In this document: in pieces, positions 2,458 to 9,119 of the stretch
Layout: each line of letters starts with the position of its first letter
How positions within the stretch are numbered: the stretch's first letter is position 1
Translations under genes and position numbers: made by a program
The notes under the pieces: model-generated
The model's input: only the letters and a program-made list of their open reading frames with translations
Told to the model about the DNA's origin: nothing
Database searches by the model: none
Source: Promethearchaeia archaeon
Lineage (GTDB): Archaea; Asgardarchaeota; Lokiarchaeia; Sigyniarchaeales; SOKP01
NCBI GenBank assembly: GCA_046497275.1
Contig: JAWOFX010000049.1
Span: 1 to 12,877, forward strand
Direction: 5' to 3'
Length of the DNA: 12,877 bases

Positions 2458-2955
2458 TTTTGTCTAATTGTTGATTTTAGGTAAGAATAAAATGATTCTT
2501 ATCTACTAATAATATTTGTCAAATTGTTTTTAAATATGTTTGTATTTAATTTAGTTTTATTAGTTGTAAAATTTTTTTTCTTTCTTTGGCAGATCCTTAT
2601 AAGTTCCCTATCTGAAAATAAAAACTCCTATTTCAATTTTATACAAAAAAAGACTGGTGCTAATCAAATTGAATTGCCACTTGAATATAGCTTTAAACAT
2701 AAATTCTTAGATATTTCAAAAATACAATTATATTAAAAATAATTATAAATCAAATCTTTTCGAACTTGTCTATTCCATAAAAATTTTTTAAACCATTTCG
2801 TCTATTAAGAGGGATTAAGAATCATAAGATTAGGATAAAAATATTTATCTATGAATTACCTATATTCCACAATTTTTAAAAATCTATTTTTCTTATTCTT
2901 TTTTCGCCCTAAAATATTTAGGTACTCGTTCATTATCTAATTTGGGGTAATTAAA

Positions 2956-3450
2956 ATAGCAACTAAAAGTGCTGATGATTTCCGATATTTAATTCCAGAA
3001 CCCTTATTCCAAAACATCACCCAAAAGGCCGCAGACGAATATCCCTTCATTGTTCATGGCTGGCTTTTCGCTGACAGAAGAGAAAACTTTGGGATTTGTA
3101 CTAAATTCGAAGTCAATGACAATATTAATATAAAACACGCGAAAACACATGAAAAGCCCAGCTCTTGGATGCGATACAAGAAATCGAAACTTTATAACAT
3201 GCGGAAGTTTAAAAAGAACCGCGATGTCGATATTGTATGGCAGTGGCATTCTCATCCTACTGACAAGAAAAAATTACACGCGATGGATAAACGTATCCTC
3301 AAATATATGAGCACTGGGGTTATGATTATTGTAATCCCACCCGTGCCGGAAAAGAACCAAAAAGCTCATATCGTTGGATGGTATTACAACAAACGCCATA
3401 GGAGAAAGCCTGAAATTAAAAAAATGGTCTTTGAGATGATCTCTGAATAA
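2956..3450 (+). CDS. JAB/MPN (JAMM-like) domain protein, ~164 aa, probable non-canonical ATA start
   Basis: The frame is open from 2941 (after TAA 2938-2940) to TAA 3448-3450. The upstream part reads IATKSADDFRYLIPEPLFQNITQKAADEYPFIVHGWLFA..., matching the MPN first helix and strand. Motif VWQWHSHPTDKKKLHAMD. RBS-like GGGGT at 2944-2948 is 7 nt before ATA 2956. The listed ORF starting at 3169 would cut the domain in half. Confidence 0.8.
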   Translation: MATKSADDFRYLIPEPLFQNITQKAADEYPFIVHGWLFADRRENFGICTKFEVNDNINIKHAKTHEKPSSWMRYKKSKLYNMRKFKKNRDVDIVWQWHSHPTDKKKLHAMDKRILKYMSTGVMIIVIPPVPEKNQKAHIVGWYYNKRHRRKPEIKKMVFEMISE

Positions 3451-3752: not shown

Positions 3753-4007
3753 ATGCCTTCGAAATTAATCTCAGTAAGGGAAGAAATATATAGAAAACTG
3801 AAAAAACTGAAAAATCCGGATGAGAGTTTTTCAGATTTATTTGAGAGAATTATAAAAACACAAGAAAAACAGCCTTTAAAACATTTTGGAATTGGTAAGC
3901 ATCTACCAGAAGAATTTCAAGATGAATTTGAAGCGGTAATTTTAGAAGCTAAGAAGGAATTCGCAGAGAATACAAGGCGCAGATTCAATGAACTTTGGGG
4001 AGAATAG
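3753..4007 (+). CDS. vapB: VapB-type antitoxin (archaeal DUF217/VAPB_antitox-like)
   Basis: N-terminus MPSKLISVREEIYRKLKKLKNPDESFSDLFERII matches the family pattern (K.IsV.eevY..L..lK..gESFSdvi.Rl). Acidic C-terminus. Lies directly upstream of a PIN gene. Confidence 0.9.
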   Translation: MPSKLISVREEIYRKLKKLKNPDESFSDLFERIIKTQEKQPLKHFGIGKHLPEEFQDEFEAVILEAKKEFAENTRRRFNELWGE

Positions 4008-4008
4008 A

Positions 4009-4422
4009 ATGATACTAGTTGACACGACTGTAATTATTGATATATGGCGCGGAAGAACCAACGTAAGGAAGTGCTTAGAAAAATACACTGAAGAATCTTT
4101 CGCAATATCTTCAATCACAATTGAAGAGATTTATGATGGGCTCGGATATACAAAAAAAGAAAAAGGAGAAGAACTCTATAAAAAAATTAGGAATCAATAT
4201 GCAAAAATTTTGCATAATTTTCACATCATCCCCTTATCTACAGAAATTTTAAAAAAAACAGGATTGCTTCGGGGAGAACTTAGAAGAAAGGGCGAGATAC
4301 TTGATCTTGCTGATATCATCATAATGGTCACAGCGCAAGAAATTCACGCATCTAAAATCATCACGAGAAATCCGAAGCATTTTGAGAATTCTTCAATTCC
4401 CATTGAATCCTATAATATATAG
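4009..4422 (+). CDS. vapC: VapC PIN-domain ribonuclease toxin, 137 aa
   Basis: MILVDTTVIID...SSITIEEIYDG...DLADIII...IITRNPKHF carries the PIN acidic residues. The start is moved to ATG 4009, 1 nt after the vapB stop and preceded by GGGGAG at 3997-4002. Confidence 0.93.
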   Translation: MILVDTTVIIDIWRGRTNVRKCLEKYTEESFAISSITIEEIYDGLGYTKKEKGEELYKKIRNQYAKILHNFHIIPLSTEILKKTGLLRGELRRKGEILDLADIIIMVTAQEIHASKIITRNPKHFENSSIPIESYNI

Positions 4423-4639
4423 AGTTTGATTGATTAATACTCGAGAAAACACCGAAATGATCATTAGCGATGAAAAAGTTCCATACAAGAGATAAACCAA
4501 TTCTCAAATATATGGGTCAGATAGTTATGATCATTGTATTTCCGTATATTTCAGAAAATCGCCAACAAGATTGACATATTCTATAACAAAATTTAATTAT
4601 TTAATAAATTTCCATCATCGAATCAAAGGATACTTGTCT

Positions 4640-7360: not shown

Positions 7361-8326
7361 TTGATTATGAGTAAATCAGAAATTGCAATTGAAGCCTCAA
7401 ATCTGAGGAAAAGCTTTGGGGATTTAGTTGCGGTTGATAATATTTCTTTTAAAATCTTTAAAGGAGAAATTGTTGGGATTTTAGGTCCAAATGGAGCCGG
7501 AAAAACGACTACAATTCGAATCATAACAGGCTTATTTGAATCTGAAGAAAATACGAGAATTTACATTTTTAATCAAAATTTAAGGAAAAATTTTGAGACA
7601 AATAAATCTAAGTTTGGAATTGTCCCCGAAATAAGTAATGCTTTTAGAGATTTTACAGTTTGGCAGAATTTACTCTTTACAGGAAGAATTTATGGCCTCT
7701 CAAAGCAAGAAATTGAAAGTCGTGCGAAAGTGTTGTTAGATCAATACGATCTTTATGACAGAATTAACACGAAAACAAAATCACTGTCAAAAGGATTACA
7801 ACAAAGGGCAAATTTCTGTTTAGCACTATTACATGATCCTCCTATATTAATTCTTGATGAACCCACAAGTGGATTGGATCCTATATCAGTTTCTATAATG
7901 AGAAAAAGAATTTTACAGATGAAAGAGGAAGGAAAGACTATTTTAATTACAACCCATGACATGCAAGAAGCGCAAAATCTCTGCGATAGAGTGTTGATTA
8001 TGAATAAAGGAAAAATAATAATAGATGCAGATCCCGATACACTCAGGAGAAATTTCAAGCAAAAATCCACTATTCGTTTTCAAATCGTCAATCATATCTC
8101 ACTTAACCAAATACAACAATTAGAAGAAACGTTAAAAATAAAAAAAGAGAAGGGTGGATACTATAGTTTTTTAAGTGATGATCCTCTTCATGATATCTCT
8201 TCATTATCTCATATTATTGAAAATTCGGGTATAGAAGTTAAAAATATCACAATTAAGGAAGTTTCTCTGGAAGATGTATTCATTGATTTAATTAAGAAAA
8301 CAAAAAGGAGAGATAATAATGATTAA
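7361..8326 (+). CDS. ABC-2 (DrrA/NodI-like) exporter ATP-binding subunit 1
   Basis: Walker A GPNGAGKTT, signature LSKGLQQR, Walker B/D-loop ILILDEPTSGLDP, H-loop TTHDM, C-terminal SLEDVFIDL. Start is TTG 7361 or ATG 7367. Confidence 0.95.
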   Translation: MIMSKSEIAIEASNLRKSFGDLVAVDNISFKIFKGEIVGILGPNGAGKTTTIRIITGLFESEENTRIYIFNQNLRKNFETNKSKFGIVPEISNAFRDFTVWQNLLFTGRIYGLSKQEIESRAKVLLDQYDLYDRINTKTKSLSKGLQQRANFCLALLHDPPILILDEPTSGLDPISVSIMRKRILQMKEEGKTILITTHDMQEAQNLCDRVLIMNKGKIIIDADPDTLRRNFKQKSTIRFQIVNHISLNQIQQLEETLKIKKEKGGYYSFLSDDPLHDISSLSHIIENSGIEVKNITIKEVSLEDVFIDLIKKTKRRDNND

Positions 8327-9119
8327 AGAAAAATTGGGCGTCGTATGGGTTCTATGCAAAAAGAATATCTCTTTATATATCAAAAGAGGACCCGTATTAA
8401 TTTTTGGTCTTATGTTTCCGTTCTTTATAACACTCTCGTGGGTAATTGGCAGAGATCTCTCATTTAATCAAATATTTATTGGAATTGTTACTATGACCGC
8501 ATTTTTCACCTCAACAGCGATTAGTCCTGTAATTTTACCACAAGAAACTCGAGAAAAATCATTAGAACGGCAGTTATATTATCCTCTTTCAATTTATCAA
8601 ATTCTTTTAGGGATAGTAATGGCTTCTTTTTTATATTCCACTGTCATAACTCTGATTATTACAACATCTTTTATCTTTATGCTTTCTATCTCATTTTCTT
8701 CAGTACTTCAGATATTCATTCTCATTGTGGGAATCTTTTTAATAACCAGTCTTGGTTCATTATTAGGATTACTCCTTTCTGCTATTCCCAGTGATATGAC
8801 TTCTGATATCATGGTAGTTAGTAATCTTCTTAAATTTCCTTTAGTATTCATCAGTGGCATTTTTATTCCGCTTAATTTGGCTCCCTTCAGCTTATTCGTT
8901 TTATCTCTTTTTTCTCCTCTAACATATTTTACAGATTTAATAAGATTTAGTACCGGCGACAATCCCTTTTTTAATATTGGGCTGGATATACTCATATTGG
9001 TCTTATGGGTAATTGTATTTTTAATAGCTAATGGAATTTTTCATAGAAGAACAATGCCTAAACGATTTTCAGAAAAGAATGGAAGCAAACCAAAATCTAA
9101 GAAAAAAATGAAGGAATAA
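8319..9119 (+). CDS. ABC-2 type permease 1
   Basis: About 6 hydrophobic segments, QETREKSLER (E...G.le-like motif), FPLVFISGIFIP, SPLTYFTDLIR. Overlaps the ATPase stop. Confidence 0.92.
   Translation: MIKEKLGVVWVLCKKNISLYIKRGPVLIFGLMFPFFITLSWVIGRDLSFNQIFIGIVTMTAFFTSTAISPVILPQETREKSLERQLYYPLSIYQILLGIVMASFLYSTVITLIITTSFIFMLSISFSSVLQIFILIVGIFLITSLGSLLGLLLSAIPSDMTSDIMVVSNLLKFPLVFISGIFIPLNLAPFSLFVLSLFSPLTYFTDLIRFSTGDNPFFNIGLDILILVLWVIVFLIANGIFHRRTMPKRFSEKNGSKPKSKKKMKE

Follow-up and report, generated by a model that had tools for sequence, protein, structure and literature searches.

A JAMM-fold protein family of Asgard archaea with zinc ligands retained, the catalytic glutamate missing and histidine at the serine position

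Here we describe a hitherto uncharacterised family of JAMM-fold proteins, in which the catalytic glutamate is missing, the oxyanion serine is substituted by histidine and the zinc ligands are retained. The analysis started from a gene located at 2956..3450 (+) of a 12,877-nucleotide stretch of archaeal DNA, which as a whole is called the window below. The hallmark of JAMM enzymes is an E...HxH...S..D site. All MPN proteins that we know to be devoid of the Glu have been treated as dead scaffolds. The Glu-less JAMM family, as we call it, departs from this pattern, since both Glu and Ser are lost and yet the residues that bind the metal, plus two additional His, stay constant. It is found in nearly every genome of an order that includes cultured Asgard archaea, and because cultured members of this order carry it, the family is directly testable. 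If active, these proteins would represent a second design of the JAMM active site, probably with a new substrate class; if inactive, they would be MPN scaffolds of an unusual sort that keep their zinc, in the closest prokaryotic relatives of eukaryotes.

Fold and active-site residues

The reading frame of the window gene is open on the + strand from 2941, right after an upstream stop (2938-2940), to the TAA at 3448-3450, and all residue numbers given here come from reading through from nt 2941. Translation, homologues, the fold and purifying selection upstream of M77 together delimit a coding sequence of 164 aa counted from ATA 2956 (2956..3450, +), with a G+C content of 38% vs 31% across the window. 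The product has a pI of about 9.9 and a net charge of about +16, with 34 K+R vs 18 D+E, and contains the basic runs RYKKSKLYNMRKFKKNR and NKRHRRKPEIKK. The string YPFIVHG occupies residues 34-40 (nt 3040-3060) and the metal-site block H103-S104-H105-P106-TDKKKL-H113-AM-D116 lies at 3247..3288 (+), H113 taking the position of the JAMM Ser. The strings quoted by an earlier, sequence-only reading of this DNA (YPFIVHG, HSH-PTDKKKL-H-AM-D and the basic runs) are all present in the frame 2941-3450.

The AF2 model of the window protein, for which a 47-sequence alignment served as input, had a pLDDT of 88.1 and a pTM of 0.82, and showed the topology beta1 (15-19), alpha1 (20-32), beta2 (39-47), beta3 (50-58), helix 76-92, beta4 (98-104), helix 114-123 and beta5-beta7. 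By VIA-align it was superimposed on P. furiosus JAMM1 (5ld9) with Z 13.4 and rmsd 3.0 over 128/129 aligned residues (model residues 14-167), and on the Caldiarchaeum Rpn11 homologue, BRCC36, CSN5 and Rpn11 with Z 11-13. Foldseek matched Rpn11, CSN5, CSN6, BRCC36 and JAMM1 at E about 1e-7, with a probability of 1.00 for Rpn11 and CSN5; structures of Mov34 (Rpn8) stood beside those of CSN6 among the matches, and the neighbours in the ESM Atlas were "JAB domain-containing" clusters. With the Pfam profile PF14464 (Prok-JAB) the window protein scored 19.5 bits (E 9e-4), below the cutoff of 25, and an E below 0.01 was reached by 19 of 47 members of the Glu-less JAMM family (best 1.4e-4). PF01398 (JAB) had no match in the Pfam scan of the window protein, and phmmer against PDB sequences returned no match to it either; profile matches in PDB to SAMTOR and an aldolase (E>0.01) were discarded as spurious. 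In our judgement the window protein almost certainly has an MPN/JAB fold and belongs to the Glu-less JAMM family.

In the model H103 and H105 are placed at the end of beta4, and D116 on the following helix 114-123. The arrangement HxH-x7-[H]-x2-D of the window protein fits the JAMM motif spacing HxH-x7-S-x2-D (PMC300881), and the retention of the H, H and D ligands, as claimed before, is borne out by H103, H105 and D116 at this canonical spacing. A short JAMM of canonical type (L084:1462-1956), encoded in the same genome, carries YPNEACG and HSHPSGNYPSGVD. According to hhalign (probability 82%) its YPNEACG lies over YPFIVHG of the window protein, and its HSHPSGN over HSHPSGN of the Glu-less JAMM family consensus, for which the window copy has HSHPTDK; the string HSHPSG is common to the family and to the canonical JAMM of the same genome. 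From this overlay it follows that the canonical Glu is represented by Ile37 (3049..3051, +; in beta2), the Cys by His39 and the Ser by His113. Together with the fold of the model, this overlay shows that the match to the JAMM motif is no chance resemblance. Both substitutions that the sequence-only reading had pointed out, Ile for Glu and His for Ser, were confirmed in this way in the window protein.

They are also a property of the family. A homologue search provided 144 relatives, mostly of about 160 aa, the full-length ones being 54-82% identical, and columns were counted over 116 full-length representatives. At position 37 the residues are I (96), V (13), L (4), M, F and S (one each), with an acidic residue in 0/116; position 113 is occupied by His in 115/116 and by Asp in the remaining one (P0124). 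These counts support the proposal of a distinct MPN subfamily with family-wide Glu-to-hydrophobic and Ser-to-His changes. Twelve residues are invariant in 116/116: H70, H103, H105, P106, D116, R15, Y16, P73, W76, Y122, W147 and E165, and the metal-site block is the best-conserved stretch of the protein in the family alignment. The relatives are named only "hypothetical" or, automatically, "RPN8/RPN11" ('proteasome lid subunit RPN8/RPN11' for some of them at JGI). A word-indexed profile search brought up, among the matches listed, mainly already known relatives and a few family members of 48-50% identity, and among those matches (120 of 180) there were no intermediates with the canonical motif.

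One proposal of the sequence-only reading found no support, namely that the His of "VHG" (H39) is an essential extra ligand. This position is H in 100, N in 10 and S, K, R, L or G in the other 6 of the 116 relatives. The carrier genomes form two families, f1 and f2, within one Asgard order (Lokiarchaeales-type), and in all five f2 sequences read position 39 is Ala, with H70, HxH, H113, D116 and E165 kept; H39 is therefore dispensable. The invariant extra His is H70 (3148..3150, +), which that reading had not remarked on and which the model places in the Ins-1-equivalent region, within the loop that connects beta3 to the basic helix. The basic helix itself (residues 76-92, from W76; 3166..3216, +), assigned as helix by DSSP in the AF2 model, is near-invariant among the relatives, and the pI of the family is 9.5-10. 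The invariant acidic residue Glu165 (3433..3435, +) belongs to the last strand and is situated outside the Pfam Prok-JAB match.

Comparison with known proteins and possible modes of action

In AfJAMM zinc is bound by H67 and H69 (beta4) and by D80, while E22 (beta2), braced by the Ser between the two His, holds the water and serves as acid-base catalyst, and S77 flanks the oxyanion hole, its hydroxyl being located where thermolysin has His231 (PMC300881). In the Glu-less JAMM family the bracing Ser (position 104) is S in 76, T in 36, V in 2 and I in 2 of the 116 relatives, a relaxation that fits the genuine absence of Glu.

The archaeal JAMM1-type proteins (PfJAMM1, 5ld9/5lda; AfJAMM, 1R5X; the Caldiarchaeum Rpn11 homologue, 6fju) are the best structural match, being single-domain MPN folds of similar size with HxH ending beta4, Asp on the next helix and the JAMM spacing. 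The Glu-less JAMM family differs from them in having no Glu in beta2 and His (or Asp) for the oxyanion Ser, and the window protein in being strongly basic, with a sub-threshold Pfam score and no SAMP/Ubl link. Where AfJAMM has a disordered loop (PMC300881), the window protein is predicted to have an extra ordered basic helix together with H70. Rpn11, CSN5 and BRCC36 share with the window protein the fold (Foldseek E about 1e-7, Z 11-12.4) and an insertion at the Ins-1 position beside the active site, but the window protein is devoid of the Glu, the Ser and the C-terminal helical extension for lid/CSN assembly. The MPN-minus proteins (Rpn8, CSN6, eIF3f/h, Prp8 MPN, Abraxas/KIAA0157) likewise combine the MPN fold with the lack of a catalytic Glu; they have, however, lost the metal ligands, which in the Glu-less JAMM family are invariant and accompanied by two further His. 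A likeness of chemistry, and not of homology, links the family with thermolysin-type zinc proteases, in which His231 flanks the oxyanion hole where JAMM has Ser (PMC300881), the same position being taken by His in our family; the fold of thermolysin is unrelated and its general-base Glu is still present.

In the Glu-less JAMM family the general-base Glu of beta2 has given way to a hydrophobic packing residue. The explanation we favour, to which as a whole, with the mechanism included, we give a little less than an even chance, is that H103, H105 and D116 still form a working metal centre. Water activation or transition-state stabilisation would then be shifted from the Glu/Ser pair to His113, possibly aided by His70, and the protein would be a metal-dependent amidase- or isopeptidase-type hydrolase of altered chemistry. 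With a net charge of about +16 and a near-invariant basic helix, it would work on, or next to, a polyanion, be it RNA or an acidic protein. The window copy would be expressed as a monocistronic unit from its own TATA-like box and the SD-like GGGGT, with translation from ATA 2956. The placement of H70, H113 and E165 relative to the metal is derived from the model topology and is to be taken as a prediction.

Particular elements of this explanation deserve different degrees of trust. It is probable that the metal site is retained and functionally required, whereas continued catalysis is plausible but, on balance, we lean against it. The interchange of His and Asp at the Ser position (P0124) fits a role of this residue as a base or as a ligand. 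It could, however, make a fourth protein ligand that saturates the metal and turns the site into a structural one, which counts against catalysis, and we know of no active JAMM without the Glu. The Glu is required in every characterised JAMM enzyme, for example Csn5, in which E56A and also S128A are inactive (PMC300881), which counts against catalysis too. The sub-threshold Pfam score and the lack of linked Ubl, E1 or E2 genes likewise speak against the explanation as a whole; the strong constraint on the core copy speaks for it. The most far-reaching version, in which a thermolysin-like His (with His70) substitutes for the Glu/Ser pair and defines a new mechanistic class of the JAMM fold, encoded by a core Lokiarchaeales-type gene and directed to a non-ubiquitin polyanionic substrate (tRNA, rRNA or an RNP protein), is rather unlikely.

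Nearly as likely as our leading explanation is that the protein is a non-catalytic MPN module, in which H103, H105 and D116 with H113 or H70 would hold a purely structural metal. It would then be an MPN-minus protein with its zinc preserved, and RNA or a large complex would use it as an adaptor or a binding subunit; we regard this as a serious, if tentative, possibility. The indispensable Glu is lost across the family, the gained His/Asp would be within reach of the metal according to the model topology, and a pI of 9.5-10 with a near-invariant basic helix suits a binding role, as does conservation equal to that of proteasome alpha, which is typical of proteins mostly buried in a complex. In the inactive state of CSN5 a Glu of Ins-1 is the fourth zinc ligand, which also supports such a module. 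It is harder to reconcile with the fate of known MPN-minus proteins, which lost their ligands, while here these are invariant along with the neighbours P106, K111 and L112, and with the absence of an adjacent partner MPN+ gene or complex subunit, the gene being monocistronic between tRNA genes.

Distribution and genomic context

Among the 301 genomes of the phylum searched, the Glu-less JAMM family is present in 68 of the 75 genomes of one order (f1, 61/68; f2, 7/7) and in 0/225 genomes from 28 other families of the phylum. An exhaustive phmmer search over 1.84 billion representatives matched only six clusters, one of which (P0127) is spurious, a low-complexity repeat artefact. Most carrier genomes have one copy. 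The mean identity of this core copy over 1035 locus pairs is 86.2%, and for the same pairs proteasome alpha gives 87.4%, SBDS 83.3%, Rrp41/42 83.5%, TFB 83.5% and L2 82.9%; in conservation the core copy equals proteasome alpha. Near-identical sequences (L048, L060, L061, L067 and others) are labelled at NCBI as Promethearchaeota, Odinarchaeota, Hodarchaeota, Thorarchaeota or Hermodarchaeota, and for this reason the phylum labels of that MAG series look unreliable; the GTDB-based search puts all carriers in one order.

In f1 genomes the core copy is preceded by GatE, GatD, L2, TFB(-), two HisKA-receiver proteins and a tRNA(-), and followed by tRNA-Ser(GCU) (joined by tRNA-Val in some genomes), DUF2110(-), a profilin-like protein, proteasome alpha, SBDS, Rrp4, Rrp41, Rrp42 and L37Ae. 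It is monocistronic; the spacers on its two sides, about 440 nt and 290 nt long, hold the tRNAs, and tRNA-Ser(GCU) follows on the same strand after about 120 nt. The tandem HisKA and receiver proteins upstream (L030:5412-7551 and equivalents) have acidic N-termini and no detectable HATPase. At L030 (tRNAs at 7601-7676 and 8760-8844), L049, L018 and L026 the core copy sits within a tRNA cluster, made up of opposite-strand tRNA-Lys(CUU) or tRNA-Ser(UGA) upstream and same-strand tRNA-Ser(GCU), with or without tRNA-Val(UAC), downstream.

In f2 this synteny is gone and only the downstream tRNA-Ser(GCU) recurs, in one genus only. Since the synteny with proteasome and exosome genes is absent there, we give it no functional weight. 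No Ubl, E1, E2 or other candidate substrate gene was linked to the family among 80 loci, no MPN gene adjoins the family genes in the examined loci, and the region downstream of the G210 homologue had no Rfam match. The genomic context yields no function for the Glu-less JAMM family.

The tRNA genes are of importance for one more explanation, improbable in our opinion and overlapping both of the above, according to which a JAB/cytidine-deaminase-like fold would act on, or bind, tRNA or rRNA through the basic helix and a basic beta6-beta7 loop. The net positive charge and the conserved basic segments would be in keeping with it, the f1 core copy is wedged among tRNA genes, and adjacency to tRNA-Ser(GCU) recurs in one f2 genus despite the lost synteny. 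This adjacency is, however, missing in four other f2 genomes and at all paralogue loci, and such adjacency is weak functional evidence in any case. The protein has no RNA-binding or deaminase motif, and no JAB protein acting on RNA is known to us. The JAMM fold does superimpose on cytidine deaminase (PMC300881).

As for other proteins of this kind, the genome that carries the window gene encodes five further, longer, canonical JAB proteins elsewhere. Three canonical JAB/MPN frames of 317, 528 and 454 aa lie within about 5 kb of contig C118 of G000 (about 88.3-93.4 kb; L088, L091-L093), and further long JAB/MPN proteins are found on C128 and C185, the organism being rich in eukaryote-like MPN proteins.

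The window copy and its start codon

Located in a variable region, the window copy evolves faster than the core gene, of which it is an accessory paralogue. A second copy in the same genome, 70% identical and with a TTG start, is placed at the end of contig C156. The clade of the window gene comprises seven distinct loci, which share an insertion of two residues and an R-R-K-P segment and sit on long branches, and is nested in f1 beside the core copies L099 and L020 (SH-aLRT 91, inner node 97), a placement that comes from a quick tree and not from a careful search. The seven paralogue loci have no conserved neighbours, each locus being different.

Directly downstream of the window gene, at 3753-4422 (+), are overlapping genes of a VapB antitoxin (PF02697) and a PIN-domain VapC toxin. 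Toxin-antitoxin genes adjoin two of the seven clade loci, VapBC in the window and DUF3368 (PIN-like) at L007. Right after the VapC gene, about 1 kb downstream of the window gene, there is a decayed fragment of a second paralogue-type copy (4467..4580, +), which matches residues 108-144 with E 3.8e-4 and 54% identity, has one in-frame TGA and in translation shows ...KKFHTRDKPILKYMGQIVMIIVFP...; it points to a past duplication, or a rearrangement, around the toxin-antitoxin genes. PADLOC gave only weak JAB matches and no defence system.

Between the stop at 2938-2940 and M77 the window gene has no ATG, GTG or TTG. The first canonical start in frame is the internal ATG of M77 (3169..3171, +), used in the public annotation (P0143), and its 93-aa product would be deprived of beta1, alpha1, beta2 and beta3. 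The same holds for the clade, as in six of the seven loci ATG, GTG and TTG are absent from the stretch that runs from the upstream stop to the conserved FRYLIP. Eight codons ahead of its Phe, where L007 has ATG, there is ATA in the window (2956..2958, +) and ATA, ATT, ATT, ATC and ATA in L004, L005, L006, L008 and L009, respectively. A Shine-Dalgarno-like GGGGT (2944..2948, +), recognised by nucleotide conservation across the paralogues, lies 8 nt before ATA 2956, and this spacing fits the 6-10 nt between GGAG and the start at other window genes. At 5/6 of the paralogue loci with an ATH start the nucleotides (G)GGGTAATT are preserved, and L009 has AGGGGAATA. The only 16S copy found in the genome is partial (model positions 4-828). 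Further upstream, about 41 nt before ATA 2956, the A/T-rich TATA-like element TAAAATATTTA (2910..2920, +) occupies the same place in all seven paralogue loci and is a putative promoter.

Comparison of the seven species of the clade gave pN 0.09-0.24 vs pS 0.56-0.99 between the ATA and M77, and the C-terminal half behaves alike. Because pN is well under pS, as in the C-terminal half, this segment is translated, and from the alignment the window gene most likely starts at ATA 2956, the position at which the sequence-only reading, too, begins it. This start is the reason why only the C-terminal 93 aa are kept in the public annotation; the relatives P0022, P0115, P0116, P0118, P0120 and P0121 have also been truncated by gene callers. 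ATT 2950 was rejected as a start, being only 2 nt after GGGG, and it is ATA 2956 that aligns with the ATG of L007.

The missing canonical start before M77, the 93-aa annotation and the truly decayed fragment 1 kb downstream might be read as signs that the window copy was once a canonical JAMM gene and is now decaying as a pseudogene, with its start lost and active site degraded, but this is very improbable indeed. The frame is open over the entire domain, and strong purifying selection acts on the N-terminal half in seven species whose synonymous sites are saturated. The same 'degraded' motif is essentially constant over 116 relatives, and an ATH codon stands at the L007 ATG position behind an SD-like motif in 6/6 loci without a canonical start. 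A check for decay of this kind had gone along with the sequence-only reading, and no close homologue with the canonical motif was found, the window copy itself being under purifying selection.

A minimal upstream ORF, TTG-GGG-TAA (2942-2950, +), overlaps the SD-like motif, and L004 and L006 have ATG-GGG-TAA at the corresponding position. This ORF, which part of the clade lacks, may be a regulatory element of the start-stop type. As a general mechanism, reinitiation from it or a -1 frameshift was dismissed, since L005, L008 and L009 have no ORF in a consistent frame. Among the core copies, L064, L074 and L076 (ATT) and L071 (ATH) also have no canonical start at the aligned position, and the SD sequences before these starts are of the AGAGGT or GAGGTGG type; near-cognate starts recur within the Glu-less JAMM family.
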